Shown here piece by piece: positions 29,912 to 63,412 of a DNA stretch of 64,000 nucleotides. The notes beneath the pieces were generated by a model. The model had not been told where the DNA came from. It saw only the letters and a program-made list of their open reading frames with translations, and searched no databases. Source of the stretch: Enterobacteria phage vB_EcoM_IME281. The position numbers and the translations under genes are program-made. The DNA is taken from the sequence record MH051913; one strand, given 5' to 3'. Every line of letters begins with the position of its first letter. The first letter of the stretch is position 1.

Positions 29912-31580
29912 GTTAAAGAAAGTAACGTATAAAAATATTATGTCGGTCGGGCAGCAGCCCATTACAATCCAACTTGATAAGGTCCAAAAGACCTTAGTCA
30001 CTGGTAAAAATGGTGCAGGGAAATCAACATTCCTTGAAGCTGTAACATTTGCTCTGTTCGGTAAGCCTTTTCGTGATGTTAAGAAAGGGCAGTTGATTAA
30101 CTCAAGTAACAAGAAAGACCTTTTGGTCGAACTGTGGATGGAATATGATGTCAAAGAATACTATATCAAACGCGGGCAAAAACCCAACGTTTTTGAAATC
30201 TCTTGTGACGGTGAACGTCTTGATGAATCTGCCAGCAGTAAAGACTTCCAAGCGGAATTTGAACAGCTTATCGGAATGTCCTACGCAAGCTTCAAACAAA
30301 TTGTCGTACTCGGCACAGCTGGATATACCCCTTTTATGGGCCTATCCACTCCTGCAAGAAGAAAACTCGTCGAAGACCTCTTAGAGGTTTCCGTATTAGC
30401 GGATATGGATAAGTTGAACAAATCTTTGATTCGTGAGACTAATAGCCAAATCCAAGTAATAGACGTTAAGCAAGATTCTATTACCCAACAAATTAAAATT
30501 TATAATGACAACGAAGAACGCCAACGTAAATTATCTGGCGAGAACGCGGCCCGTCTACAATTAATGTATGATGAGCTCGTTAAAGAAGCCAGGACTGCGA
30601 AGGCGAGCATAGAATCCCTGACTGATGAATTACTCAATGTTATCGTAGATGATGACCCTAGCGATTCCATGAGTGACCTGAGTAATAAAGGATTTGCAAT
30701 CAAAAATGATATGGCAACCTTTACAAAGGTGGTTAAGTTATACGAAACCGGTGGTCACTGCCCTACGTGTATGCAAGGGTTAGAAGAGCATGGTAATATC
30801 CTTACTAAAATTAAGGATAAAAACTTTGAGCTTCAAAAATCTTTGGATAAGATTAATGAGCAATACCAAGAGCTCAAGCTCATTAAAGACCAAGTAACCG
30901 AACAACGCAATAAAGCATTGGCTATTAAATCTCAGATAGCTACTCATAAGCAGCAAGCCATTACTGCTGTAGAGAAAGCCAAAAAGGTTAAGGTATTAAT
31001 TGACCAAGCGGCAGCTGAGTTCGTAAGTAATGCCGAAGAGATTGCTGCGCTTCAAGCAGAGCTTGATAAAATCGTCTCTACCAAATCGTCCTTGGTAATG
31101 GAAAAATATCATCGTGGAATTCTGACAGAAATGTTGAAGGATGCAGGTATTAAAGGTTCCATTATTAAGAAATACATTCCTATCTTTAATAAGCAGATTA
31201 ATTCTTATTTGAAGATTATGGAAGCGGACTACGTCTTTACCCTAGACGAAGAATTCAATGAGACGATTAAATCACGTGGACGTGAAGACTTTAGTTATGC
31301 TTCATTTTCACAGGGTGAGAAAGCACGTATTGATATCGCACTACTTTTTACCTGGCGTGATATTGCTGAAAAAGTCAGTGGAGTCCACATTAGTACATTA
31401 GTGTTGGATGAAGTTTTTGATGGAGCAGTTGACGCTGAGGCTGTTAAGGCGATTGCAAGTATTCTTAATAGTCTTGAAGACAGTAATGTTTTTATAATCA
31501 GCCACAGGGACCATGACCCTCAAGCATATGGTCAGCATTTACAAATGAAAAAGGTTGGTCGATTTACAATTATGGAATAA
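29898..31580 (+). CDS. 46: recombination endonuclease subunit gp46 (Rad50/SbcC-like ATPase)
   Basis: Walker A GKNGAGKST, coiled-coil middle, C-terminal signature/Walker B LVLDEVFDG; 560 aa. Confidence 0.92.
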   Translation: MKTFKLKKVTYKNIMSVGQQPITIQLDKVQKTLVTGKNGAGKSTFLEAVTFALFGKPFRDVKKGQLINSSNKKDLLVELWMEYDVKEYYIKRGQKPNVFEISCDGERLDESASSKDFQAEFEQLIGMSYASFKQIVVLGTAGYTPFMGLSTPARRKLVEDLLEVSVLADMDKLNKSLIRETNSQIQVIDVKQDSITQQIKIYNDNEERQRKLSGENAARLQLMYDELVKEARTAKASIESLTDELLNVIVDDDPSDSMSDLSNKGFAIKNDMATFTKVVKLYETGGHCPTCMQGLEEHGNILTKIKDKNFELQKSLDKINEQYQELKLIKDQVTEQRNKALAIKSQIATHKQQAITAVEKAKKVKVLIDQAAAEFVSNAEEIAALQAELDKIVSTKSSLVMEKYHRGILTEMLKDAGIKGSIIKKYIPIFNKQINSYLKIMEADYVFTLDEEFNETIKSRGREDFSYASFSQGEKARIDIALLFTWRDIAEKVSGVHISTLVLDEVFDGAVDAEAVKAIASILNSLEDSNVFIISHRDHDPQAYGQHLQMKKVGRFTIME

Positions 31581-31597
31581 GCCTCTTATTGAGGCTT
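31579..31597. terminator. bidirectional hairpin between convergent gene 46 and HNH gene
   Basis: AAGCCTC-ttatt-GAGGCTT overlapping both stop codons. Confidence 0.5.
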
Positions 31598-32323
31598 CAT
31601 TTTACAGTTATCGAAATGCCAACGATTCATATTACCGGAATTCCCTTGTTTACCACAATGAGGGCATTCTACCTTCTTTTCTGATTTTTTGCGTCCGTTA
31701 GGATTTTTCTTACAAAAAACTTTATGAGCCGCAATAACACAGGATTTTCCTGAAAGGCCACAGAATTCACATTCCACAATTTTATGGACCATGTTTTCTA
31801 GGCCTTTCTTTATTTTTAATTTTTGCTCTTCAGATATAGAGCGGTCTACTTTATTAGGGCCTTTAGGACAGTTATCGAAATGCCATCTGTTCATATTGCC
31901 TACCAATCCAGTTTTGCCACAGTGTGGACAGGTAACTCTAGGCTTTTTTAAAGCGGAAATTGACATTTTCTTTCTGGTTTCTTCCGAGAATTCTTTATCC
32001 TTTTGGGCTTCTGAATTCTTACGACGAAGCCATCCAAATAATTTATTTTTAGACCTATCAGCTTTTGGTGAGCTAACTGTCATCATTCTTGCTGCATAGA
32101 CTAACGATGCGTTATCTGGATGGATTTTAACTAACAACTGGTGAGCCAAGTAATGTTCTTCAGGTGTTAAGTCTACCAAGTTTAAAGCGTCATCCGTCCC
32201 ACCCATGCATTGTGGTATAATGTGATGACGTTCTTTATAGGTAGTTAAATTTCTATTAACTGCTCGTTGAATAAGCTTTTCGTATATTGATTTATAATTC
32301 ATTATCAAATCCTTATTTGACAC
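31586..32323 (-). CDS. free-standing HNH homing endonuclease with C-terminal zinc-finger repeats
   Basis: HNH core HHIIPQCMGGTDDALNLVDLTPEEHYLAH; three CPHCGK..GNMNRWHFDNC-like repeats; only sizeable minus-strand gene. Confidence 0.85.
   Translation of the reverse strand: MSNKDLIMNYKSIYEKLIQRAVNRNLTTYKERHHIIPQCMGGTDDALNLVDLTPEEHYLAHQLLVKIHPDNASLVYAARMMTVSSPKADRSKNKLFGWLRRKNSEAQKDKEFSEETRKKMSISALKKPRVTCPHCGKTGLVGNMNRWHFDNCPKGPNKVDRSISEEQKLKIKKGLENMVHKIVECEFCGLSGKSCVIAAHKVFCKKNPNGRKKSEKKVECPHCGKQGNSGNMNRWHFDNCKMKPQ
31586..32323 (-). mobile_element. HNH homing endonuclease gene inserted between genes 46 and 45
   Basis: Opposite orientation to all neighbours; HNH family typical of T4 mob genes. 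Confidence 0.7.
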
Positions 32324-32345
32324 AGCGACCGATAAAGATATTTAT

Positions 32346-32540
32346 ATGGCTTCCAATTTTATAACAGGCCAGCATTTGTTGGCCGTTCCAGAAATAAAGA
32401 GATATGTTTTAGTTAACAACTTCTCTGGAGACGAACATCTTGTTACTGAAGATTATCTCCAAAATGCTTTTAAGTCAGAATATGTTACAATCATGTCAAA
32501 TAGAAATCCAGCATGGTTTGTCTATGAGTACTTTGATTAA
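32346..32540 (+). CDS. hypothetical protein
   Basis: 64-aa ORF. Confidence 0.5.
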   Translation: MASNFITGQHLLAVPEIKRYVLVNNFSGDEHLVTEDYLQNAFKSEYVTIMSNRNPAWFVYEYFD

Positions 32541-35913: not shown

Positions 35914-35935
35914 AAGGGACTTCGGTCCCTTTTTG
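35914..35935 (+). terminator. intrinsic terminator upstream of gene 43
   Basis: AGGGAC-UUCG-GTCCCT then TTTTT. Confidence 0.7.
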
Positions 35936-35992
35936 GAGTATAATGATTCATCAACAAATAAAAGACAATCACTCGTCTATAAAGGAAATGAA

Positions 35993-38704
35993 ATGCAAGA
36001 ATTCTATTTGACAGTCGAACAAATCGGTGATAATATTCTCGAACGTTACATCGATAAAAATGGTAACGAACGTAGTCGTGAAGTTCCTTACAAGCCTACA
36101 ATGTTTATGCATGCTAACCCAGAGCAAGCCGTAAAATATATTGACATCTACGGTAAGGGCTGTGTTAAGAAAGAATTCGATTCAATGCGCGATGCTTCTC
36201 AGTGGATGAAGCGCATGGACGATATGGGTCTCGAAGCCCTTGGTATGGACGACTATAAATTAGCCTATTTGTCTGATACCTATCGTAAAGAAATCAAGTA
36301 TGATTCTTCCAAGATTCGTATTGCTAACTTCGACATCGAGGTAACATCCCCTGATGGATTCCCTGAACCTGCCCAGGCTAAACATCCTATCGATGCCATT
36401 ACTCACTACGACTCGATTGATGATAAATTCTATGTATTTGACCTTTTAGTTTCACCTTACGGTACGGTCGAAGAGTGGTCGATTAAAATCGCTGAGAAAC
36501 TCCAAGACGAAGGTGGTGACGAAGTTCCACAAGAAATCATTGACAAAATCGTTTATCTTCCGTTTAATTCTGAAGAAGAAATGATGCTTGAGTATCTGAA
36601 TTTCTGGCAACAGAAAACTCCTGTGATTTTGACTGGATGGAACGTTGAATCATTTGACGTGCCATACGTTTATAACCGTCTGAAAAATCTGTTTGGTGAG
36701 AACACTGCTAAGCGATTAAGCCCACATCGTAAGACTCGTGTTAAAGTTATCGAGAATATGTACGGTGTTCGCGAAATTATTACACTGTTCGGTATCTCTG
36801 TTCTGGATTATATCGACCTTTATAAAAAATTCAGCTTTACTAACCAGCCTTCTTATTCTCTGGATTATGTTTCTGAATATGAATTGAAAGTAGGTAAGTT
36901 GAAATATGATGGTCCTATCTCCAAGTTACGTGAGACGAACCACCAACGATATATTTCCTATAACATTATCGACGTATATCGTGTTGTGCAGATTGATATG
37001 AAACGCCAGTTCATTCTTCTTAGTCTGGACATGGGTTACTATGCCAAGATGCAGATTCAGTCGGTGTTCAGTCCAATTAAGACTTGGGACGCTATTATCT
37101 TTAATAGCCTTAAAGAACAGGGTAAAGTTATTCCTCAGGCCAAATCGCATGCGGTTCAACCTTATCCAGGTGCTTTCGTTAAGGAACCTATTCCTAACGC
37201 GTACAAATATGTAATGAGTTTCGACCTTACATCTCTGTACCCGAGTATCATTCGACAAGTGAATATAAGCCCAGAGACCATCGCAGGCACATTCGCCAAC
37301 GCACCGATACATGAATATATTGCCGGAACTGCTCCGCGTCCTAGCGACACCTACAGTTGCTCTCCTAACGGCATGATGTACTATAAAGACCGTGACGGTG
37401 TGATTCCTACAGAAATCACGAAGGTGTTCTTACAGCGTAAAGAACATAAAGGTTATATGCTTGCAGCTCAACGTAATGGTGAGTTAATTAAAGAAGCATT
37501 AGAAAATCCTAATCTGTCTGTTGATAGTCCACTGGATATCGATTATCGTTTCGACTTCTCTGACGAAATCAAAGCTCAGATTAAAAAATTGTCAGCATCT
37601 TCTTTAAAAGAAATGTTGTTCAAAGCCGAACGTACTGAAGTCGCAGGTATGACTGCTCAGATTAACCGTAAGTTGCTTATCAACTCCCTTTATGGTGCAC
37701 TTGGTAACGTATGGTTCCGTTACTATGACCTCAGGAACGCAACTGCAATCACATTGTTTGGTCAAATGGCCCTCCAATGGATTGAACGTAAGGTTAACGA
37801 ATATCTGAATGGCGTGTGCAAGACTGAAAACCAGAAGTTCGTGCTCTATGGTGATACTGACTCCATTTATGTTAAGGCTGACGCAATCATCAATAAAGTA
37901 GGCGAAGACAAATTCCGTGATACCAACCATTGGGTAGACTTCTTAGATAAATTTGCACGTGAACGTATGGAACCGGCTATTGATGCAGGCTTCCGTGAGA
38001 TGTGCGAATACATGAACAACAAACAGCACTTGATGTTCATGGACCGAGAAGCTATCGCTGGTCCTCCGCTTGGTTCTAAAGGTCTTGGTGGATTCTGGAC
38101 AGGCAAGAAACGTTATGCACTGAACGTTTGGGACATGGAAGGTACTCGTTATGCCGAACCACACTTGAAAATCATGGGTCTCGAAACTCAGAAATCAAGT
38201 ACGCCTAAAGCGGTTCAGAAAGCACTGAAAGAATGTATCCGTCGTATGCTTCAAGAAGGCGAGGCTTCTTTGCAAGAATATTTCAAACAGTTTAATAAGG
38301 AATTTAACGAATTAGACTATGTAAGCATTGCTGCAGTATCCAGTGCTAACAACATCGAGAAATATAATGAAGGCGGATTCCCTGGTTCTAAATGCCCGTA
38401 CCACATCAAAGGTTGCTTAGCTTACATGCGTGCTTCTGCTGGTGATTTGACTATGCCTCGTATCGTTGATGGTGAAAAGGTATATGTACTGCCACTTAAA
38501 GAAGGCAACCCGTTCGGTGAAGCTTGTATGGCATGGCCGTCAGGTATTGAACTTCCGATTCAGATTCGTGACCAAGTCCTCCGTTGGATGGACTACAACG
38601 TACTGTTCCAAAAGACCTTTATCAAACCTCTGACCGGTTTTACTGAGTCTGCTAAAATCGACTACGAGAAAAAAGCAACATTATTTGACATGTTTGACTT
38701 TTAA
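35993..38704 (+). CDS. 43: DNA polymerase gp43 (family B)
   Basis: Exo motifs FDIEV, YNIIDV; pol motifs SLYPSI, YGDTDS; starts MQEFYLTVEQIG (track start 35933 is upstream in-frame). Confidence 0.97.
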   Translation: MQEFYLTVEQIGDNILERYIDKNGNERSREVPYKPTMFMHANPEQAVKYIDIYGKGCVKKEFDSMRDASQWMKRMDDMGLEALGMDDYKLAYLSDTYRKEIKYDSSKIRIANFDIEVTSPDGFPEPAQAKHPIDAITHYDSIDDKFYVFDLLVSPYGTVEEWSIKIAEKLQDEGGDEVPQEIIDKIVYLPFNSEEEMMLEYLNFWQQKTPVILTGWNVESFDVPYVYNRLKNLFGENTAKRLSPHRKTRVKVIENMYGVREIITLFGISVLDYIDLYKKFSFTNQPSYSLDYVSEYELKVGKLKYDGPISKLRETNHQRYISYNIIDVYRVVQIDMKRQFILLSLDMGYYAKMQIQSVFSPIKTWDAIIFNSLKEQGKVIPQAKSHAVQPYPGAFVKEPIPNAYKYVMSFDLTSLYPSIIRQVNISPETIAGTFANAPIHEYIAGTAPRPSDTYSCSPNGMMYYKDRDGVIPTEITKVFLQRKEHKGYMLAAQRNGELIKEALENPNLSVDSPLDIDYRFDFSDEIKAQIKKLSASSLKEMLFKAERTEVAGMTAQINRKLLINSLYGALGNVWFRYYDLRNATAITLFGQMALQWIERKVNEYLNGVCKTENQKFVLYGDTDSIYVKADAIINKVGEDKFRDTNHWVDFLDKFARERMEPAIDAGFREMCEYMNNKQHLMFMDREAIAGPPLGSKGLGGFWTGKKRYALNVWDMEGTRYAEPHLKIMGLETQKSSTPKAVQKALKECIRRMLQEGEASLQEYFKQFNKEFNELDYVSIAAVSSANNIEKYNEGGFPGSKCPYHIKGCLAYMRASAGDLTMPRIVDGEKVYVLPLKEGNPFGEACMAWPSGIELPIQIRDQVLRWMDYNVLFQKTFIKPLTGFTESAKIDYEKKATLFDMFDF

Positions 38705-38766: not shown

Positions 38767-39003
38767 ATGGAAGCTTTAATCGTTAGTGCTGGTGTTTTAG
38801 GATTCGGTTCTCTGGTTATTATGTTCATTGGTTACTTTTTACCATGGATTCTGGCCCTTCTGCGAGGCACTCGTAGCAATGTCGGAATCTTCTTCCTTAA
38901 TCTCCTGTTAGGGTGGACGATGATTGGTTGGGTAGTGGCTTTAATCTGGGCTATCGTCGCTGAACGTAAATCAAACGCACAAATCATTATCGTTAAACAA
39001 TGA
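38767..39003 (+). CDS. superinfection immunity (Imm)-like membrane protein
   Basis: 78 aa, two TM helices, LLGWTMIGWVVALIWA motif; directly downstream of gene 43 as T4 imm. Confidence 0.6.
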   Translation: MEALIVSAGVLGFGSLVIMFIGYFLPWILALLRGTRSNVGIFFLNLLLGWTMIGWVVALIWAIVAERKSNAQIIIVKQ

Positions 39004-39137
39004 AGATAATTATTTTATTTCTTATAATGGCTGCCTTTACCGTTTATTGGGCAGTGGCAATTCCTCCAATGATTCCAACATTAATCATGGGATGGATTAT
39101 TCTTATAGCACAAATTAAGTATAACTGTTTTAATTGA
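39000..39137 (+). CDS. hypothetical small membrane protein
   Basis: 45-codon hydrophobic ORF, ATGA-coupled. Confidence 0.35.
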   Translation: MKIIILFLIMAAFTVYWAVAIPPMIPTLIMGWIILIAQIKYNCFN

Positions 39138-39144
39138 GGATATT

Positions 39145-39645
39145 ATGAAAAAGTTAATTATCGCAATGAGTATGCTCCTATCAGGTTGCGCAGTCCAATA
39201 TGGTGATGCAGTTTCTGCTGATGAAGTTGGTAAAGCTCGTATCGCAGCTGAACAGAAACAATTCGACGGCGAAATGAAATTCCGTGCCGGTTCTGGACTT
39301 GTGTACACCCGAGCTAATAATCAATGTGGTAATAACTGTGCAAAATATGCTCAAAGGGAAATCGAATTCCAACGTGAACAAGAGTCTAAGCGTGAAGCGG
39401 TACTAGCCAAACACCAGGCAGAAATGAAGCGCCAAGATGATTTGTACAAAAAGCAGAAACTGTATGCCATGTGTGTAAACCATATCAATCTACAGATTTC
39501 TGTCCACGAGGCTCGTTATTACGAAATGCTCGAAACCGAGAGCTTCGATAAGGCTCGTGATTATAAGAAACAAATCAACAAGCTTAAGACCAAAGTGCCT
39601 GCTGCAGTAGAACAGTGCATGGAATACGGTAAAGATAAGATTTAA
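39145..39645 (+). CDS. predicted lipoprotein
   Basis: Signal peptide with lipobox LLSGC; 166 aa. Confidence 0.6.
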   Translation: MKKLIIAMSMLLSGCAVQYGDAVSADEVGKARIAAEQKQFDGEMKFRAGSGLVYTRANNQCGNNCAKYAQREIEFQREQESKREAVLAKHQAEMKRQDDLYKKQKLYAMCVNHINLQISVHEARYYEMLETESFDKARDYKKQINKLKTKVPAAVEQCMEYGKDKI

Positions 39646-39706
39646 GCAATAGAAATTTATTAAAAAATAGTGTATAATGTACCTACATTCACTTGAGGAA
39701 CAGATA

Positions 39707-41380
39707 ATGAAAAAGGTTGTTATTTTAGGCGCAGGTCTTGGCTCACGGTTGTATCCAATTACTAACGAAATCCCAAAGGTATTGGTTAACTACAAACAAC
39801 ATACGGTATTAAAACATTTGTATGATTTGTATAGTAACCAATCAGATGAAATTATTCTGGTTATTCACAGCAAATTTAACGACCTCGTTAAAGGCTATAT
39901 TAAATCCATTAACATGATTACTGGTGATAAGCCTAAATTCACTATTCGTAACGTTGATGTTGCTAATGGTTCAGCTCATGCTATCGATTGCATTGCCGAA
40001 GATATCATTGGCCATAATGTCCTGTTTAACTGGTGTGACATCATTCCTATCGGTCATAAAGTTGAATGGGGTAACGACTATTGTTATACCTATGGAACTG
40101 ACTGTCGCTTTACATTTGAAGAACCGTACTTACGTGAAATTGGTACCGGTGGCGGTGTAGTTGGTTTGTATCAGGTAGCCAATTGGACAGGTTTCGACCG
40201 TTCTAATTATGGCGAAGACCTTGCTGATAACCTGGATTCAATGGTCTATTTGACTGAACGTAAACTGGATTTTGTAGTTGATGTCGGTGACAAATTGAAA
40301 CTTGCCAAGGCCCATGAAGATTCTGAAATTAACCGTGAATTTAATAAATTAGAGTTCACCGAGAATCTGGCTATTAAAGTACCAACTAACGAATTAGGTA
40401 AAGAAATTCAATCTAAAGAAATCAATTGGTATAATTCTATTGATTCTGAATTCGTTCCTAGCATTGTAGACTTTTCTCCAGGCGAATTCATTAAAATGGA
40501 ACGTATCTTTGGTCGTACCATGGCAGATGCCTACCGGTTTATGTCCAAAGAAACTAAAGTCCTCATGGTTTATAAGGTCATTAGTGCATTACGTTCATTC
40601 GGTGGAACTATCGATAACCCGTCCGATGAGCAGTGGTATTCCGATGTTAAGAAAGAAGTATTGGACAAGGTCCTTATTCGTAATGCTTCTATTGCCGGAT
40701 TGATTGAAGGCTTTGCTCCACAGGGCATTACCCATGTTAACGATTTCAAAGTAGGCGACCCCGAAAAACTTCTCCGCCATGCACTAGAAATTCTGTCCGA
40801 ACATAAAGAACCGTACCAACTTATTCACGGCGACCCGCACTACAGTAATATTATGTTGTCGGATGAAGGTGATATTAAAATCATCGACCCGCGTGGTTAT
40901 TTTGGTAATAGTTCTAAAGGCCCTGCGATTTATGATGAAGCTAAGGTGCTTTATTCTATCGATGGCTATGACAAATTTAACTCAGACCCTCTATGGGGTG
41001 GATTAACTCGTAACGGAACCCGTGTATTCGTTGATATCGAAAAGGTTATGCCTTTAGACGATATTCCTATGTGCACATTTAAGCACAAGCTCTGGATTGC
41101 TGTTATTTGGATGGCTCTGGCAGGTTACTTTAAGAATAACCCTCTGAAAGCTCTGGGTGCTTATTATAACGGTTTGTATCAACTGAGTGTGCTGCTTAAG
41201 CGGCATCCTCGTAAGCGTAAGCTTATCACAGGTGAATTTGTCGATGAAGTTCGTGACCCTATCACGGCTCAAATTATTACTCGTTGCCCTGATAAGTGGG
41301 TTTTGCTTGACCAGGAAACTGGTGTAAAATATAAACCTACAGGTTCTACTGAACTCCACAAACAATGGAAGAAAATTTAA
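39707..41380 (+). CDS. bifunctional sugar-phosphate nucleotidyltransferase / kinase (NTP-transferase N-domain, APH/ChoK-like kinase C-domain)
   Basis: N-terminal GAGLGSRLYPITNEIPKVLV (G-x-G-x-R-L-x-P-x-T..PK); C-terminal Brenner motif IHGDPHYSN and IIDPRG. Confidence 0.75.
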   Translation: MKKVVILGAGLGSRLYPITNEIPKVLVNYKQHTVLKHLYDLYSNQSDEIILVIHSKFNDLVKGYIKSINMITGDKPKFTIRNVDVANGSAHAIDCIAEDIIGHNVLFNWCDIIPIGHKVEWGNDYCYTYGTDCRFTFEEPYLREIGTGGGVVGLYQVANWTGFDRSNYGEDLADNLDSMVYLTERKLDFVVDVGDKLKLAKAHEDSEINREFNKLEFTENLAIKVPTNELGKEIQSKEINWYNSIDSEFVPSIVDFSPGEFIKMERIFGRTMADAYRFMSKETKVLMVYKVISALRSFGGTIDNPSDEQWYSDVKKEVLDKVLIRNASIAGLIEGFAPQGITHVNDFKVGDPEKLLRHALEILSEHKEPYQLIHGDPHYSNIMLSDEGDIKIIDPRGYFGNSSKGPAIYDEAKVLYSIDGYDKFNSDPLWGGLTRNGTRVFVDIEKVMPLDDIPMCTFKHKLWIAVIWMALAGYFKNNPLKALGAYYNGLYQLSVLLKRHPRKRKLITGEFVDEVRDPITAQIITRCPDKWVLLDQETGVKYKPTGSTELHKQWKKI

Positions 41381-41763
41381 TGTCGCATCGAGTAGAAAAT
41401 AAGCCACATTTATGTTTTGATATCGATAACACAATCACGATTTGGAACCATGACCGTGATTATGAGAACTTTAAACCGGACACCGAAATGGTGTCCATGA
41501 TTAATAAGCTTTATGATGAAGGGTACGAGATTACATTATTCACTGCCCGCGGCATGACTTCATGTGGCCCAGGTCGAATCTTGGTTGAAGTAGTTCCTGC
41601 ATTGGTTAAGAACCTTGAAAAGATTGGATTGAAATATCATAATCTGCTTACGCATAAGCCGAGTTATACTTTTATCATCGATGACCGAGCAATCCGTCCT
41701 GACCACTTTAAAGAAATGGTTCGTGAAGGAACTCTTGATAGTTATAAGGCCTATCATCCATGA
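41380..41763 (+). CDS. HAD-superfamily phosphatase
   Basis: HAD motif I CFDIDNTIT; 127 aa; TAATG coupling to upstream gene. Confidence 0.65.
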   Translation: MSHRVENKPHLCFDIDNTITIWNHDRDYENFKPDTEMVSMINKLYDEGYEITLFTARGMTSCGPGRILVEVVPALVKNLEKIGLKYHNLLTHKPSYTFIIDDRAIRPDHFKEMVREGTLDSYKAYHP

Positions 41764-42296
41764 ATCCAAAAATCATTGTTATAGACGGCCCGGATAATTC
41801 CGGGAAGTCCACTTTAATTAAAAATCTGTTATCCAATAAGAAATACCGCCTTATTGATTTTCCTAAAAAGATTAATGGCAAGTGTATTTCATTAGGAACT
41901 GATAACGATAAGGCTTTAGTTGAAACTCTGTATAAGTTTTTAGACCCTAATTTCGTTTATATCCTTGACCGTGGTTATCCAAGTAATATTGTTTACTCAG
42001 GATTCCTTCGTGGTGAAATGGACCCTTATGTAGAACTGGAAGATTGGAAAGGGTTTAAATCCGAATTTAACGTTATCGAGGTTATTTTAACTCGCAATCC
42101 ATTAGACGAAGACTTCGAAGACGACCTTATTAAATTAACCAAAGATGAGTTCAACCTAACTATCCGGCAATACGAAACATGTTTTGAAAACGTGTTTAAA
42201 ATCTTAAATCATGACGGCCATAATAATTTGCTTAATGTTGATATGGTAGAATTAAAACGTCTGAACGAATATATTGAAAATAAGGTGAATAAATGA
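41760..42296 (+). CDS. P-loop kinase (nucleotide/nucleoside kinase-like)
   Basis: Walker A IDGPDNSGKSTL at N-terminus as in thymidylate/deoxynucleoside kinases. Confidence 0.6.
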   Translation: MNPKIIVIDGPDNSGKSTLIKNLLSNKKYRLIDFPKKINGKCISLGTDNDKALVETLYKFLDPNFVYILDRGYPSNIVYSGFLRGEMDPYVELEDWKGFKSEFNVIEVILTRNPLDEDFEDDLIKLTKDEFNLTIRQYETCFENVFKILNHDGHNNLLNVDMVELKRLNEYIENKVNK

Positions 42297-42991
42297 AACA
42301 CATTACCGCTGTTAGTTTTGAAAATGCATTTAAACAAATGAACGAAGAAATCCTGGAAGCTCCACAGTTTGCAGTTGATTCTCGTATCGGACGTTGTTAT
42401 GAAATTGGTTCTGCTTCGGTAGAAGTACTGGATGCAAGCACCTATAAATTCACCGACCCACGTATCAATCGTATTAGTTATGAATATGCCGAATCCTTTT
42501 GGAAATTTATGATTTCTGGTGGTACTGACGCTGCCGAAGCATTTAAGGAATACCCTAATGTTGCTAAGTTCATTGATAAGCCGAAAAGTGATGTATTGCC
42601 TGCAAACTTCAACACTTTCTATGGACCTCGAATTGTGGCCCAACTCCCAGCCCTACTTAAAGAGCTTAAAGAAAAGGCTAACTCGCGAAGAGTTGTGTTC
42701 CAGATTCTCCAAGAACAAGACCAAGCCCTCCTTGATTCTGACGAATCCTTAGAATATCCTTGCACCGATTCGGTAACGTATTATATTCGTGACGGACGTT
42801 TGTATGCACACACCCATATGCGTTCACAAAACTGCGCCGTTGTTATGCAGCTGGATTTCTATCTGCAGGGTAAACTGATGGCATTTATTGCTGAACAGTG
42901 TGGTGTCGGTTTAGGTACATATTCCCACACCATGGTAAGTGCACACGTGTTTGAACGTGATTTTGACTACGTCCGAGGTTTCCTGAAATGA
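42293..42991 (+). CDS. 42: dCMP hydroxymethylase-like enzyme (thymidylate synthase fold), divergent
   Basis: Catalytic Cys context YPCTDSVTYYIRD and MRS..; Asp in QLDFY at the dCMP-specificity position; position of T4 gene 42. Confidence 0.75.
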   Translation: MKHITAVSFENAFKQMNEEILEAPQFAVDSRIGRCYEIGSASVEVLDASTYKFTDPRINRISYEYAESFWKFMISGGTDAAEAFKEYPNVAKFIDKPKSDVLPANFNTFYGPRIVAQLPALLKELKEKANSRRVVFQILQEQDQALLDSDESLEYPCTDSVTYYIRDGRLYAHTHMRSQNCAVVMQLDFYLQGKLMAFIAEQCGVGLGTYSHTMVSAHVFERDFDYVRGFLK

Positions 42992-43881
42992 GTTTGTTTA
43001 TCGTTCCTATTTTCAGTATGCGTAGTTACGAAACAGGTGAATATGCCGTCCTTAAGGACGGCAATTTTCAACTCCATTTAAATCGTGCTCGTCCAGGTGA
43101 TTATCTGGCTTATCCTAGAAATTCGAGCGATATCAAAGAATGCATTGAATTATTCCCAGAACTGAATTTCGTACCACTTTGGTATAAAGAAAATGCTTAT
43201 GAAACCCGTAAACATTTCTGGTCTGAAAATGAGTTTGTAGTCGATTCACTAATCGAATACTATGATTGCTCAGGACTGGTGACCGATATCACCGGTTATG
43301 ATGGTGCTCATACTGTACAATTCAACTTTAATATCACAATGGACCCTGAAGTTCCTCGTTATTATATCGACGAGTTCATTGATATTGATGTGGCTTCAGT
43401 TGAACGTTCACTTTATACTACAGTCTTGAATCAATGCCAGAAAGACGTCCTGGTGTCACGAGGTGCATCCTCTGATAAGATTTTTGTAGACCAAAAGGTA
43501 ATTAATCCTGCAGTAATTGAGCGTTACTCTGAAGGTCTAGCGCCTATTAAAATTGATGGTATTTTCCATCCATTCCGTATTTCGGATAAGTGTTATCAAT
43601 TCGAAAGAGTTGTAGACCAAGCTGCCGCTGAAGGTGCTCGTCTTTATATCACCGACCCTAATGATTCATTTAAGCGCGAAGACTATCGTCCTGATGTAGA
43701 GATTATTAAATTCAAACCGAGTAAGGTTGAATATTATCAAATTCTGAAATCAAGACCACATATCATTTATCATGAGAACCCAGGTTTAGTATTCCATCCT
43801 GGTCTGGCTGAATTCATTTATTTCGGTGCCAATATTCATTCTGAATACGAAATGCCACGTTATGAGGACGTAGTATGCTAG
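42988..43881 (+). CDS. hypothetical protein (candidate DNA sugar transferase by position)
   Basis: 297-aa ORF where T4 has beta-glucosyltransferase; no motif recognised by eye. Confidence 0.6.
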   Translation: MSLFIVPIFSMRSYETGEYAVLKDGNFQLHLNRARPGDYLAYPRNSSDIKECIELFPELNFVPLWYKENAYETRKHFWSENEFVVDSLIEYYDCSGLVTDITGYDGAHTVQFNFNITMDPEVPRYYIDEFIDIDVASVERSLYTTVLNQCQKDVLVSRGASSDKIFVDQKVINPAVIERYSEGLAPIKIDGIFHPFRISDKCYQFERVVDQAAAEGARLYITDPNDSFKREDYRPDVEIIKFKPSKVEYYQILKSRPHIIYHENPGLVFHPGLAEFIYFGANIHSEYEMPRYEDVVC

Positions 43882-44006
43882 GTCCTCTATTGCTTTTTAT
43901 AGGTTTGGTATTATTCTCTTTCGGAGCCTTGCTATTATTAGTGTGGCTCGAGAAACGAGAAGTTCGGAAGATAGTCGATAAGGCTATCAACCGAGGAATT
44001 AAGTAA
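43875..44006 (+). CDS. hypothetical small membrane protein
   Basis: 43-codon hydrophobic ORF overlapping upstream stop. Confidence 0.35.
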   Translation: MLGPLLLFIGLVLFSFGALLLLVWLEKREVRKIVDKAINRGIK

Positions 44007-44083: not shown

Positions 44084-45256
44084 ATGTCTGATTTAAAATC
44101 CCGTTTGATTAAAGCTTCTACTTCTAAAATGACTGCCGACCTGACCAAATCTAAATTGTTTAATGGTCGTGACGAAGTTCCTACTCGTATTCCTATGCTT
44201 AATATTGCATTGGGTGGTGCGTTGAATGCAGGCTTACAATCAGGTTTGACAATCTTTGCTGCACCGTCTAAACACTTTAAAACGTTGTTTGGATTAACTA
44301 TGGTTGCGGCATATATGAAGAAATATCCAGACGCAATTTGCTTGTTCTATGACTCTGAGTTCGGTGCTTCAGAATCTTATTTCCGTTCAATGGGTGTTGA
44401 CCTGGAACGTGTAGTTCATACGCCAATCCAGTCAGTCGAACAACTGAAGGTTGACATGACCAACCAATTAGAAGAAATTACTCGTGGTGAAAAGGTTATT
44501 ATCTTTATCGACTCCATCGGTAACACTGCTTCTAAGAAAGAAACCGAAGATGCTTTGAACGAGAAAGTTGTAGGTGATATGACTCGTGCTAAGTCTCTGA
44601 AATCTCTGTTCCGTATCGTAACACCTTATCTGACTATCAAGGATATTCCTTGCGTAGCAATTAACCATACGGCTATGGAAATTGGTGGAATGTATCCTAA
44701 AGAGATTATGGGTGGCGGTACTGGTATTCTGTACTCTGCTTCTACCGTATTCTTTATCTCTAAACGTCAGGTTAAAGATGGTACCGAGCTCACTGGTTAT
44801 GACTTCACCCTGAAGGCCGAAAAATCTCGTACTGTTAAAGAGAAATCAACGTTCCCAATTACTGTGAACTTTGAAGGCGGTATCGACCCGTTTAGTGGTC
44901 TGCTCGAAATGGCTACTGATATCGGTTTTGTCGTGAAACCTAAAGCCGGTTGGTATAATCGTGCATTCCTTGACGAAACCACGGGTGAAATGGTTCAAGA
45001 AGAAAAAGCATGGCGTGCTAAAGCTACCGATTGCGTTGAGTTCTGGGGACCGCTGTTTAAACATGCTCCGTTCCGTGAAGCAATCGAGAATAAGTATAAG
45101 CTCGGTGCAATTAATTCTATTAAAGAAGTTGACGATGCAGTGAACGACCTTATTAACTCTCGTGTCTCTAAGAACGTTGCTGTTAAATTAGGTGGAAATA
45201 CCCAAAGCGCCGCTGATATCGAAAACGATTTAGAAGAGATGGATTTAGATGACTGA
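44084..45256 (+). CDS. uvsX: RecA-like recombinase UvsX
   Basis: 390 aa collinear with T4 UvsX (MSDLKSRLIKASTSK...LFYDSEFG...KETEDALNEKVV.DMTRAKS.KSLFRIVTPY). Confidence 0.95.
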   Translation: MSDLKSRLIKASTSKMTADLTKSKLFNGRDEVPTRIPMLNIALGGALNAGLQSGLTIFAAPSKHFKTLFGLTMVAAYMKKYPDAICLFYDSEFGASESYFRSMGVDLERVVHTPIQSVEQLKVDMTNQLEEITRGEKVIIFIDSIGNTASKKETEDALNEKVVGDMTRAKSLKSLFRIVTPYLTIKDIPCVAINHTAMEIGGMYPKEIMGGGTGILYSASTVFFISKRQVKDGTELTGYDFTLKAEKSRTVKEKSTFPITVNFEGGIDPFSGLLEMATDIGFVVKPKAGWYNRAFLDETTGEMVQEEKAWRAKATDCVEFWGPLFKHAPFREAIENKYKLGAINSIKEVDDAVNDLINSRVSKNVAVKLGGNTQSAADIENDLEEMDLDD

Positions 45257-50755: not shown

Positions 50756-51277
50756 ATGGCTCATTTTAATGAATGTTCTCAACTGATTGCCGGTGCCGAT
50801 AAAGCTGAAGAAGCTTATTTTAATGCTCTGATTCACGAAGATAAAGACCCTCTGCAGGTTATGCTTGATATGCAGAAATCTTTGCAGGTTCGTTTAGCTA
50901 AAGATAAGCCTGAATATAATCGTCATCCTGATGATTTGGCCACTGCGGGTGAAGTTGTCGATTGGCTTCGCAACCAGAAAGATTATATTGATGACGAATT
51001 CCGTGAACTTATGACTTCTCTTGGTGGTATGAGCAATGGTGAAAAAGATGCATCTGCAGTATGGAAGCCTTGGAAAGCTCAACATGCTGAACGTCGTGAA
51101 ACCCTGATTAACGATTTGTCTCCTGAAGACCAGCTCGAAATTAAATTCGAAATGATTGATATTCTGCACTTTGTTCTGAATATGTTCCAGGGTCTTGGAC
51201 TGACCGCTGAAGAAATCTTTAAACTGTATTACCTGAAAAATGCCGAGAACTTTGCTCGTCAAGACCGAGGTTATTAA
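50756..51277 (+). CDS. 56: dCTP pyrophosphatase gp56
   Basis: 173 aa collinear with T4 gp56 (MAHFNEC...DPLQVMLDMQ...EIFKLYYLKN.ENFARQDRGY). Confidence 0.93.
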   Translation: MAHFNECSQLIAGADKAEEAYFNALIHEDKDPLQVMLDMQKSLQVRLAKDKPEYNRHPDDLATAGEVVDWLRNQKDYIDDEFRELMTSLGGMSNGEKDASAVWKPWKAQHAERRETLINDLSPEDQLEIKFEMIDILHFVLNMFQGLGLTAEEIFKLYYLKNAENFARQDRGY

Positions 51278-60849: not shown

Positions 60850-60868
60850 GGGCTTCGGCCCTTTTTTT
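60849..60868 (+). terminator. intrinsic terminator
   Basis: GGGC-UUCG-GCCC then TTTTTTT. Confidence 0.7.
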
Positions 60869-60898
60869 GTTTACGCTCCAATAAAGCCATGATATAAT
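60869..60898 (+). promoter_or_regulatory. early promoter upstream of GIY-YIG endonuclease
   Basis: GTTTAC-N18-TATAAT with TG. Confidence 0.6.
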
Positions 60899-60921
60899 CT
60901 TCATAAATTAAAGGAGGATGT

Positions 60922-61599
60922 ATGTTTATAGTTTACTTGACGATTTATTCCGGAGACAAATTACCTCCATTTTATATAGGTTCGACTAGCCTAGAAAAAC
61001 ATTTAAACGGATACCACGGCTCCGTAAAATCTAAAAAGTACCAAGAGATTTACAAGTCTGAATTGGCTGCCCATCCTGAGCTTTTCGATAGTTTGATAGT
61101 TGAAGAATTCGAGACAAGAGAAGAAGCTACTAAAGCGGAGTATAAGTATCAAGTCCTTAATAATGCGGCTAAATCTGATTTATTTTTTAATAGAGCAACT
61201 GCAGCACCTAAAGGATTTTTCGGCTCCGACGTTAGTAAAGAAAACAATCCTTTCTTTAACAAACATCATTCTCATGAAACTATAAAAATCCAATCAGGCC
61301 TTAAATTAGGTGAACTTAACCCTATGTATGGGATTAAACGCCCTGAACATTCCAAAGCAATGGCTAAAGAAAACAACCCTTTCTTTGGTAAGAAACATAC
61401 AGACGAGGCCTTAATCAAATGCGGTCTTAAAAATCGTAAAAGCCCTGTTTGGGAATATGAATCCGCTTTAGAAGATTTATGGTTAGAATTAGATAAACCT
61501 AAACTGGCTAAATTCATGAAAGAAAGTATTAAACGTGGATTTCCTGAAGGGTCCTATAAAAATATTTTAAAACAATTCGAGAGAAAACATAATGATTGA
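60922..61599 (+). CDS. GIY-YIG homing endonuclease (Seg-like) with NUMOD3-type repeats
   Basis: GIY-YIG core VYLTIYSGDKLPPFYIGST; three NP[FM][FY]GK repeats. Confidence 0.85.
   Translation: MFIVYLTIYSGDKLPPFYIGSTSLEKHLNGYHGSVKSKKYQEIYKSELAAHPELFDSLIVEEFETREEATKAEYKYQVLNNAAKSDLFFNRATAAPKGFFGSDVSKENNPFFNKHHSHETIKIQSGLKLGELNPMYGIKRPEHSKAMAKENNPFFGKKHTDEALIKCGLKNRKSPVWEYESALEDLWLELDKPKLAKFMKESIKRGFPEGSYKNILKQFERKHND
60922..61599 (+). mobile_element. free-standing GIY-YIG homing endonuclease gene abutting gene 39
   Basis: Own early promoter; 3' end overlaps start of topoisomerase gene by 8 nt. Confidence 0.65.
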
Positions 61600-63412
61600 T
61601 AATAAAATTGAAATGCTTTCAGATAAGGAACACGTTCTTAAGCGTCCTGGAATGTACATCGGAAGTGTATCATTTGAAGACCATGAACGATTTCTTTTCG
61701 GCGAGTTTACCAAAGTACGGTATGTAGCGGGTGTTCTTAAATTAGTTGATGAAATCATCGATAACTCAGTTGATGAAGCTATTCGTACTAATTTTAAGTT
61801 TGCCAACAAAATTTCAGTAAGCATTGATTTAAGTTCTAATAAGGTTACTGTAGAAGATAATGGCCGTGGTATTCCTCAAGCTCTAGTGGTTACTCCTGAA
61901 GGTGAAGAAATCCCAGGACCCGTCGCGGCTTGGACAAAAACCAAGGCAGGCGGTAACTTTGGTGATGACTCTGAACGTGTTACCGGTGGTCAAAACGGTG
62001 TCGGTTCCAGTTTAACAAATATATTCTCTGTGATGTTTACAGGCACAACTTCTGATGGTAAATCTGAACTTATTGTTAACTGCTCTAATAACGCTGAAAA
62101 CGTTTCTTGGAAATCAAAGCCATCTAAAACTAATGGAACCAAAGTAGAATTTGTACCTGATTTTAGCCACTTTGAAATGAACCAATTTGAAAAAATTTAT
62201 CAAGATATTACCATTGACCGACTTCAAACCTTAGCAGTCATTTATCCTGATATTGAATTTAAATTTAATGGTAAGAAAATCCAAGGGTCGTTTAAAAAAT
62301 ACGCCAAACAGTTCGACGAAGAGTGCATTATCCAAGAACAGGACAATTGTTCGATATCTATAGGACGCTCTCCTGATGGATTCCGACAATTAACGTACGT
62401 GAACAATATTCATACTAAAAACGGTGGTCACCACGTTGAATGTGTTATGGATGATATTTGTGACGAGCTTATCCCACAAATTAAGCGTAAGTTTAAAATT
62501 GAAGTAACCAAAGCCCGTATTAAAGAATGTTTAACGATGCTGATGTTTGTGCGAAGCATGAAAAATATGCGATTCGATTCCCAGACTAAAGAACGTCTAA
62601 CATCGCCGTATGGTGAAATTCGTTCGCATATTCAGTTAGATTCTAAAAAACTAGCTAAATCCATATTAGCTAATGAAGCTGTGTTGATGCCTATTATTGA
62701 GGCTGCATTAGCACGTAAGCTCGCTGCTGAAAAGGCTGCCGAAACAAAAGCTGCTAAGAAAGCTTTGAAAGCCAAGGTCCATAAGCATATTAAAGCCAAT
62801 ATGTATGGCAAAGATGCTGATACGACTTTATTCCTTACGGAAGGTGATTCTGCAATGGGTCCTTTCATTGAAGTTCGTAATAAAGACCTCCAAGGTGGTT
62901 ATCCGTTACGCGGAAAGGTTATGAATACCTGGGGTATGACTGCTGCCGATATCATGAAGAACAAAGAATTGTTTGATATCTGTGCAATCACTGGACTGGT
63001 TATTGGTGAACCTGCAGATAAAACCAACTATCGTAATATCGCTATCATGACTGACGCCGATGTGGATGGTACTGGTTCGATTTATCCTTCGTTATTAGCT
63101 TTCTTTAGTCAGTGGCCGGAATTGTTTGAACAGGGACGAATTCGTTTCTGTAAGACTCCTGTAATCATTGCTCAGGTTGGTAAAGAACAGGAATGGTTCT
63201 ATGATGTACCTAGTTATACCAAAGCTAAGGACTCTCTACCTAAGCATTCTATTCGTTATATTAAAGGACTCGGTTCTCTTGAGAAGGCTGAATACCGTCG
63301 AATGATTCAAGACCCTAAATTCGATGTAGTTCAATTACCTGAAGATTGGAAAGACCAGTTCGAAATGCTCCTTGGAAACGACCCACAGCTGCGTAAGGCT
63401 TGGATGTCATAA
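61592..63412 (+). CDS. 39: DNA topoisomerase II large subunit (gp39 fused with gp60 region; GyrB-like ATPase + TOPRIM)
   Basis: GHKL ATPase motifs (EDNGRGIP, GGQNGVGSS), TOPRIM EGDSA; 606 aa continuous ORF. Confidence 0.93.
   Translation: MIDNKIEMLSDKEHVLKRPGMYIGSVSFEDHERFLFGEFTKVRYVAGVLKLVDEIIDNSVDEAIRTNFKFANKISVSIDLSSNKVTVEDNGRGIPQALVVTPEGEEIPGPVAAWTKTKAGGNFGDDSERVTGGQNGVGSSLTNIFSVMFTGTTSDGKSELIVNCSNNAENVSWKSKPSKTNGTKVEFVPDFSHFEMNQFEKIYQDITIDRLQTLAVIYPDIEFKFNGKKIQGSFKKYAKQFDEECIIQEQDNCSISIGRSPDGFRQLTYVNNIHTKNGGHHVECVMDDICDELIPQIKRKFKIEVTKARIKECLTMLMFVRSMKNMRFDSQTKERLTSPYGEIRSHIQLDSKKLAKSILANEAVLMPIIEAALARKLAAEKAAETKAAKKALKAKVHKHIKANMYGKDADTTLFLTEGDSAMGPFIEVRNKDLQGGYPLRGKVMNTWGMTAADIMKNKELFDICAITGLVIGEPADKTNYRNIAIMTDADVDGTGSIYPSLLAFFSQWPELFEQGRIRFCKTPVIIAQVGKEQEWFYDVPSYTKAKDSLPKHSIRYIKGLGSLEKAEYRRMIQDPKFDVVQLPEDWKDQFEMLLGNDPQLRKAWMS

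Follow-up and report, generated by a model that had tools for sequence, protein, structure and literature searches.

A probable Dhakavirus version of the arabinosyl-5-hydroxycytosine DNA hypermodification pathway in Enterobacteria phage vB_EcoM_IME281

A block of five genes at 39707-43881 was analysed in a 64,000-nucleotide stretch of DNA from Enterobacteria phage vB_EcoM_IME281 (sequence record MH051913; this whole stretch is referred to as the window). An initial annotation had described these genes as co-oriented, translationally coupled and placed between imm-like genes and uvsX, and had proposed that they form a DNA hypermodification cassette. The list of open reading frames (ORFs) confirmed five + strand ORFs between the DNA polymerase gene with its imm homologue and uvsX. 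Over the cassette block, identity reaches 99.5 % with Escherichia phage UP19 and ~98 % with JS98 and JS10, and the phage belongs to the genus Dhakavirus (JS98-type). The window aligns collinearly with positions 107651-171402 of UP19, whose complete genome stood in for the regions beyond the window. The five genes of the cassette are as follows.

39707-41380, + strand: AfhE-like fusion protein, 557 aa (Pfam, tblastn, motifs, phrog_4098, ribosome-binding site)
41380-41763 (alternative start 41365), + strand: AfhF-like HAD phosphatase (tblastn, PDB 9IQW, HAD motifs, TIGR01689, TAATG start)
41760-42296, + strand: thymidylate-kinase-like P-loop nucleotide kinase, 178 aa (orthologue of RB69 gp45 and DLP3 gp78)
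42293-42991, + strand: predicted 5-hydroxy-dCMP synthase, a ThyA homologue, 232 aa (PDB 9IQU/9IQC/9IR2, active-site residues)
42988-43881, + strand: predicted arabinosyltransferase 1 (GT1) with a GT-B fold, 297 aa (orthology to RB69 gp47:46 and DLP3 gp79, structure model)

The coordinates, motifs and junctions of this arrangement were verified. The junctions read TAATG between the fusion and HAD genes and ATGA at each of the HAD/kinase, kinase/ThyA homologue and ThyA homologue/297-aa protein boundaries, and these overlaps indicate that the five genes are translationally coupled. Position 39707 was accepted as the start of the fusion gene because a GAGGA ribosome-binding site lies 8 nt upstream. 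For the HAD gene, 41380 is most likely the start rather than 41365, as judged by the TAATG overlap, the UP19 annotation and the start of the alignment with RB69 gp51. The motifs quoted initially (GAGLGSRLYPITNEIPKVLV, IHGDPHYSN, IIDPRG, CFDIDNTIT and IDGPDNSGKSTL) were all present.

Each of the five genes has an orthologue over its full length in the clusters of phages RB69 and DLP3, which lie at the matching genomic slot (DNA polymerase/imm to uvsX). RB69 and DLP3 DNA contains mono- to tri-arabinosylated 5-hydroxycytosine, with the sugar ether-linked to C5, as determined by mass spectrometry (MS) and nuclear magnetic resonance (NMR; Lee et al., NAR 2026, PMC13326640), and 5-ara-dC and 5-ara-ara-dC were found independently in Mosigvirus NP (PMC13390438). 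Dhakaviruses are named among the genera with a syntenic cluster (PMC13326640). This comparison suggests that these genes encode the arabinosyl-5-hydroxycytosine (ara-5hoC) DNA hypermodification pathway in its Dhakavirus form, a reading to which we assign a probability of about 0.88. For this phage we infer every step from orthology, from the conservation of catalytic residues and from protein fold, while the chemistry is experimental in the RB69, DLP3 and HY126 orthologues. The proposal of a hypermodification cassette, with RB69-type arabinosylation as a candidate, is thus borne out by the comparison with the RB69 genes. The initial annotation had also left room for chemistry not yet described; with the pathway already published in 2025-26 and Dhakaviruses listed as carriers, this is a known system and not new chemistry.

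The fourth gene differs most from its first description, as a divergent dCMP hydroxymethylase that would make 5-hydroxymethylcytosine (hmC) the modified base. Its product belongs to the thymidylate synthase family (Pfam Thymidylat_synt, E 4e-13) and matches PDB 9IQU, 9IQC and 9IR2 at E 2e-125, with 80 % identity to 9IQU, the crystallised HY126 enzyme, the sequence of which is 98.7 % identical to RB69 gp48. Identity was 79.7 % to RB69 gp48 and 71 % to DLP3 gp80 but 25 % to T4 gp42, and the T4 gp42 structure (PDB 1b49) was matched at only E 1.5e-4. Alignment with E. coli ThyA, T4 gp42, 9IQU, RB69 gp48 and DLP3 gp80 identified Cys146 and the residues L143E, N177D and D169N in the window protein. 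Position 169 is Asn in this protein, whereas the Asp that marks T4-type folate-dependent dCMP hydroxymethylases at this position is kept in E. coli ThyA and T4 gp42. The D169N change is diagnostic for hydroxylases, and all D169N homologues tested yielded 5-hydroxydeoxycytidine (5hodC); RB69 gp48, DLP3 gp80 and the HY126 enzyme are 5-hydroxy-dCMP synthases that use flavin and O2 (PMC13326640). The high identity to 9IQU, the low identity to gp42 and D169N indicate that the window protein is a flavin-dependent dCMP 5-hydroxylase and not a divergent dCMP hydroxymethylase.

A T4-like scheme, in which this enzyme makes hmC and a sugar is placed on its hydroxymethyl group to give arabinosyl-hmC or some other glycosyl-hmC, is consistent with the protein family and with N177D and an acidic residue 143 in common with T4 gp42. 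Several public records name the gene dCMP hydroxymethylase, and RB69 DNA itself was reported in 2018 as containing arabinosyl-hmC (PMC6024577). However, NMR and MS have since shown the RB69 base to be a 5-hydroxycytosine glycoside with an ether link (PMC13326640), with confirmation in Mosigvirus NP (PMC13390438). Together with the identities and D169N described above, this makes the hmC scheme very improbable, and the modified base assumed in the initial annotation is replaced by arabosyl-5-hydroxycytosine.

The fusion protein contains Pfam NTP_transferase (residues 3-100, E 3e-8) and APH (residues 346-417, E 1e-5) domains and was matched by phrog_4098 over its full length. Identity was 44.6 % over residues 1-542 to DLP3 gp82 and 41-44 % to RB69 gp53+gp52 (tblastn, full-length). 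The window protein shares GAGLxxRLYPIT, HGDPxxSN, IDPRGYFG and FKNNPLKA with the RB69 and DLP3 orthologues and keeps their nucleotidyltransferase signature (GxGxRL), catalytic loop (HGDxxxSN) and metal-binding motif (IDPRG). The N-terminal domain is predicted to be a sugar-1-phosphate uridylyltransferase and the C-terminal domain an APH-type kinase. AfhE of HY126, with which the RB69 and DLP3 fusions are equated in PMC13326640, phosphorylates C1 of D-arabinose-5-phosphate, and AfhF then strips the 5-phosphate before uridylylation, in the summary of He et al. 2026 given there. By homology, we infer that the window fusion is an AfhE-like D-arabinose-5-phosphate 1-kinase/UDP-arabinofuranose pyrophosphorylase. 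The initial view that the fusion makes an NDP-sugar therefore stands, but not as salvage of a free sugar, since the homologue acts on D-arabinose-5-phosphate according to the same summary. The phosphorylated sugar intermediates that had been considered initially also agree with the AfhE/AfhF chemistry summarised there.

The HAD protein is 62 % identical to RB69 gp51 and 64 % identical to DLP3 gp81 (tblastn) and matches PDB 9IQW (134 aa) at E 7e-54; from the entry series and the close match, 9IQW is taken to be an HY126 protein. The four motifs DIDNT, TARGM, THKP and IIDD are conserved. Pfam returned nothing for this gene, and NCBIfam placed it in the TIGR01689 capsule-biosynthesis phosphatase subfamily (E 1e-14). 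AfhF, equated with RB69 gp51 and DLP3 gp81, is a Mg-dependent phosphatase that converts arabinofuranose (Araf)-1,5-bisphosphate to Araf-1-phosphate, as PMC13326640 reports in citing He et al. 2026. The HAD protein is accordingly named here as a predicted AfhF-like arabinofuranose-1,5-bisphosphate 5-phosphatase. The small kinase, the thymidylate kinase (TMK)-like member of the cluster, had no Pfam match above curated cut-offs but was 38 % identical to RB69 gp45 and 40 % identical to DLP3 gp78 (tblastn).

A role away from DNA altogether was also considered for the cassette, as a cell-envelope or metabolic moron, for example for phosphocholine, heptose or capsule-sugar activation. The nearest non-phage families, all weak matches, are LicC/CTP:phosphocholine cytidylyltransferase (1jyk), choline/aminoglycoside kinases and TIGR01689, and public annotations bear names of this kind ('phosphoheptose isomerase', 'capsule biosynthesis protein', 'GlmU'). 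Such a role is close to negligible in probability, given that the genes are translationally coupled to that of a dCMP-modifying enzyme within a DNA-replication gene block, that they co-occur with 5hodCMP synthase and GT1 genes in about 350 Straboviridae genomes, and that their orthologues make UDP-arabinofuranose for DNA modification (PMC13326640).

The 297-aa protein had been noted initially as being of unknown fold, with a glycosyltransferase fold raised as a question. It is 70 % and 65 % identical to RB69 gp47 and gp46, which are one gene split by a sequencing error, and 50 % identical to DLP3 gp79 (tblastn). Pfam, NCBIfam and PDB sequence searches gave no real match (only chance C-type lectin PDB matches, E 0.2), and the protein was assigned through orthology and structure prediction because these searches were empty. 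A high-confidence structure model has a GT4-like GT-B fold. The protein is predicted to be arabinosyltransferase 1, which would place the first arabinose onto the 5-OH of 5-hydroxycytosine.

No tblastn match (E<0.01) to T4 alpha-gt or beta-gt was found in the window or the whole UP19 genome, in agreement with the absence of both genes claimed initially, and the cassette has no sequence similarity to either. In T4, glucosylation of hmC (gp42, gp56, gp1, alpha-gt and beta-gt) depends on folate hydroxymethylation and on host UDP-glucose, whereas flavin/O2 hydroxylation and phage-made UDP-arabinofuranose, with the sugar ether-linked to C5-O, are predicted for the window phage. The second arabinosyltransferase of RB69 (gp3) and DLP3 gp76/gp77 likewise gave no tblastn match in the window or the whole UP19 genome, and nine of the larger UP19 ORFs with poor annotation, when scanned with Pfam, showed no glycosyltransferase domain. 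Two of these ORFs, which have no Pfam family, are nrdC-region genes common to T4/T6 and are therefore unrelated to arabinosylation.

The RB69/HY126 (Mosigvirus) cluster consists of gp55 (arabinose-5-phosphate isomerase, API), gp53:52 (AfhE), gp51 (AfhF), gp50, gp48 (synthase), gp47:46 (GT1) and gp45 (kinase), with a distal second transferase, gp3 (GT2). The window cassette resembles it in the slot between gene 43/imm and uvsX, in five orthologous genes and in active-site signatures. It differs in that its kinase gene lies between the HAD and synthase genes, whereas the RB69 kinase gene follows GT1. No API was detected in the window or the whole UP19 genome (tblastn with RB69 gp55 and DLP3 gp83, E<0.01), and neither the U32-like RB69 gp50 nor RB69 gp49 had a tblastn homologue in the same sequences. 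The tri-arabinosyl-5hoC cluster of the Acinetobacter phage DLP3 (Lazarusvirus; gp76-gp83) has orthologues of gp82, gp81, gp80, gp79 and gp78 in the window. DLP3 also encodes the isomerase gp83 and two more GT-B transferases, gp77 and gp76, by which the chain is lengthened to three arabinoses (PMC13326640). The place of the kinase in the window gene order differs from that in DLP3 as well.

The closest kin of the fusion and kinase were found in Klebsiella phage Marfa (Marfavirus and relatives), with 80 % and 85 % identity, compared with 42 % and 38 % to Mosigvirus. GT1 is about equally close to both (69 % to Marfa and 68 % to Mosigvirus), while the synthase is 80 % identical to its Mosigvirus counterpart. 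This mosaic suggests modular exchange within the cassette. Marfa-type clusters also have the HAD-kinase adjacency of the window; they differ in host genus, and chemical data were not found for them either. The phage collection contained 366 records of the fusion, 351 of GT1, 342 of the kinase, 276 of the isomerase and 212 of the gp3-type transferase, the last from Mosigvirus and Acinetobacter phages. The ten commonest organism names among the isomerase matches include no Klebsiella phages, and these organism counts suggest that Marfa-type clusters also lack an isomerase. As the isomerase and extra transferases are rarer than the core genes, they are accessory and not defining, and JS98-type phages, and apparently those of Marfa type, have a minimal core of five genes.

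The same data bear on whether the Dhakavirus/Marfavirus lineage might use this architecture with another donor sugar (another pentose), or with arabinose from a precursor other than host D-arabinose-5-phosphate (Ara5P). Both the missing API, which is also less frequent than GT1 and the fusion in the record counts above, and the divergence of the fusion and kinase from Mosigvirus would fit such a change. However, the fusion and HAD protein share all their catalytic motifs, and many in the substrate region, with the RB69/DLP3 orthologues, and GT1 retains 68 % identity to the Mosigvirus enzyme. The Kdo pathway enzyme KdsD provides Ara5P constitutively in E. coli and Klebsiella, so a phage isomerase is dispensable. 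A different sugar or precursor is thus considered unlikely.

On the preferred reading, in which the cassette makes ara-5hoC, the pathway can be laid out as follows. The phage dCTPase (50756-51277) would supply dCMP and exclude dCTP, as expected from T4 knowledge and RB69 data; its counterpart in UP19 (158525-159046) is annotated as a nucleoside triphosphate pyrophosphohydrolase. The ThyA-family enzyme (42293-42991) would then hydroxylate dCMP at C5 with flavin and O2 to give 5-hydroxy-dCMP. On the same T4 and RB69 grounds, a gp1-type dNMP kinase encoded beyond the window (UP19 100027-100788, 51 % identical to T4 gp1 by tblastn) and host NDP kinase would convert 5-hydroxy-dCMP to the triphosphate, which the phage polymerase would incorporate instead of dC. 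In the sugar branch, Ara5P would be drawn from the host KdsD/GutQ pool, a source proposed because the genus lacks an isomerase gene. Phosphorylation of C1 by the C-terminal kinase domain of the fusion would give Araf-1,5-bisphosphate, the AfhF-like phosphatase would strip the 5-phosphate to give Araf-1-phosphate, and the N-terminal nucleotidyltransferase domain would use this product and UTP to form UDP-arabinofuranose. The GT-B enzyme would finally transfer arabinose to the 5-OH of 5hoC as an ether-linked glycoside. A mono-arabinosylated product is predicted because the genome has a single transferase, in contrast to the mono-plus-di-arabinosylation of RB69. Thanatos DNA, likewise with a single transferase, is mono-arabosylated (PMC13326640). 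The host origin of Ara5P and the single arabinose per 5hoC are predictions of our own, as is any role proposed for the TMK-like kinase.

Several observations weigh against this assignment. A nucleoside analysis of Dhakavirus DNA was not found in the literature searched, so the chemistry of this phage is deduced from its relatives. Identity to the characterised Mosigvirus/Lazarusvirus proteins is no higher than 38-45 % for the fusion and kinase, and another sugar supply is conceivable where the phage has no arabinose-5-phosphate isomerase. Single transferases did not arabinosylate 5hoC-DNA (PMC13326640). Finally, TH1_063 of the Shewanella phage Thanatos, a 300-aa protein with a glycosyltransferase fold encoded beside a ThyA homologue and probably the counterpart of GT1, was reported to act as a UDP-xylose pyrophosphorylase in vitro (Brandt et al., PMC12838424). 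This activity is hard to reconcile with a GT-B fold, and what was measured may have been a side reaction or a reverse one.

The stage at which the first arabinose is added may be linked to the kinase. In one scheme, GT1 glycosylates 5-hydroxy-dCMP, the TMK-like kinase phosphorylates arabinosyl-5hodCMP and the polymerase incorporates a pre-glycosylated dNTP. The TMK-like kinase would here be dedicated to arabinosyl-5hodCMP; plain 5hodCMP would already be served by the gp1 kinase. In about 340 of 350 genomes this second, TMK-like kinase occurs together with the synthase and GT1, and it is also found in the unrelated gp214-216 cluster of Rhizobium phage RL38J1 (PMC13326640). Lee et al. cannot tell whether the first arabinose joins the mononucleotide or DNA (PMC13326640). 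Pre-replicative glycosylation would explain the co-travelling kinase, the inactivity of single transferases on 5hoC-DNA and this undecided stage, and is put forward as a tentative and rather unlikely possibility. A DNA kinase role in the style of 5-hydroxymethyluracil (5-hmU) systems, with the base phosphorylated as a leaving group, was set aside as the default, since a glycosidic ether formed from an NDP-sugar needs no activated base.

The practical value of these results lies mainly in annotation, as the mislabelled JS98-type genes predict that all virion cytosines are arabosylated 5-hydroxycytosine. In published work on related phages, the modification alters sensitivity to restriction and CRISPR, susceptibility to type IV and glycosylase-type defences, and the behaviour of the DNA in sequencing and cloning; it therefore bears on the choice of phages for therapy. 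With no isomerase, one transferase and one kinase, the Dhakavirus cluster lends itself as a minimal system to studies of the Ara5P source, the GT1 substrate and the role of the kinase, and would be the cleanest one for the question of pre-replicative glycosylation.

Annotations in public records over 39600-43950 were inconsistent and mostly misleading. The HAD phosphatase is labelled 'phosphoheptose isomerase' and the hydroxylase 'thymidylate synthase' or 'deoxycytidylate 5-hydroxymethyltransferase'/'dCMP hydroxymethylase'. Other labels across the block were 'capsule biosynthesis protein', 'capsid and scaffold protein', 'RNA polymerase binding protein', 'thymidylate kinase', 'GlmU' and 'hypothetical'. 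The features around the cassette are as follows.

35933-38704: DNA polymerase gene, upstream flank of the cassette
38767-39003: imm homologue (Pfam Imm_superinfect, E 5e-18; 43 % identity to T4 Imm)
39000-39137, + strand: hydrophobic ORF, 45 aa, 53 % identical to RB69 gp54
39145-39645, + strand: predicted lipoprotein, 166 aa, with lipobox LSGC at the end of its signal peptide (phrog_1754, function unassigned)
43875-44006, + strand: strongly hydrophobic ORF, 43 aa (ORF list and junction sequence)
44084-45256: uvsX, downstream flank of the cassette
50756-51277, + strand: gp56-type dCTPase/dUTPase, outside the cassette (ORF; Pfam dUTPase_2, E 4e-6)

The stop codon of GT1 is overlapped by the ATG of the 43-aa ORF (ATGCTAG), which may be a sixth coupled gene. 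Its membership of the cassette is uncertain, and it could be either a small co-translated membrane protein or a chance ORF; it had no Pfam or PHROG match and is not annotated in UP19. A promoter/terminator scan was uninformative (17 sites against 18.4 expected), and a TATAAT at 39673-39678, upstream of the fusion gene, is only suggestive. Two parts of the window, 31569-32355 and 60866-61736, did not align to UP19. At the position that matches the first of these, UP19 has a homing-endonuclease gene (139432-140115) after an SbcC-like gene, and the window probably holds another insert there.

The 166-aa lipoprotein gene separates the imm-like genes from the cassette and occupies the slot of the isomerase gene in RB69 and DLP3. 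Pfam gave no real match for its product, which may be a superinfection-exclusion or envelope protein and not a member of the pathway. The 45-aa ORF, whose counterpart RB69 gp54 bears the label 'similar to T4 42-imm intercistronic region', is a small gene kept beside imm in both genera.

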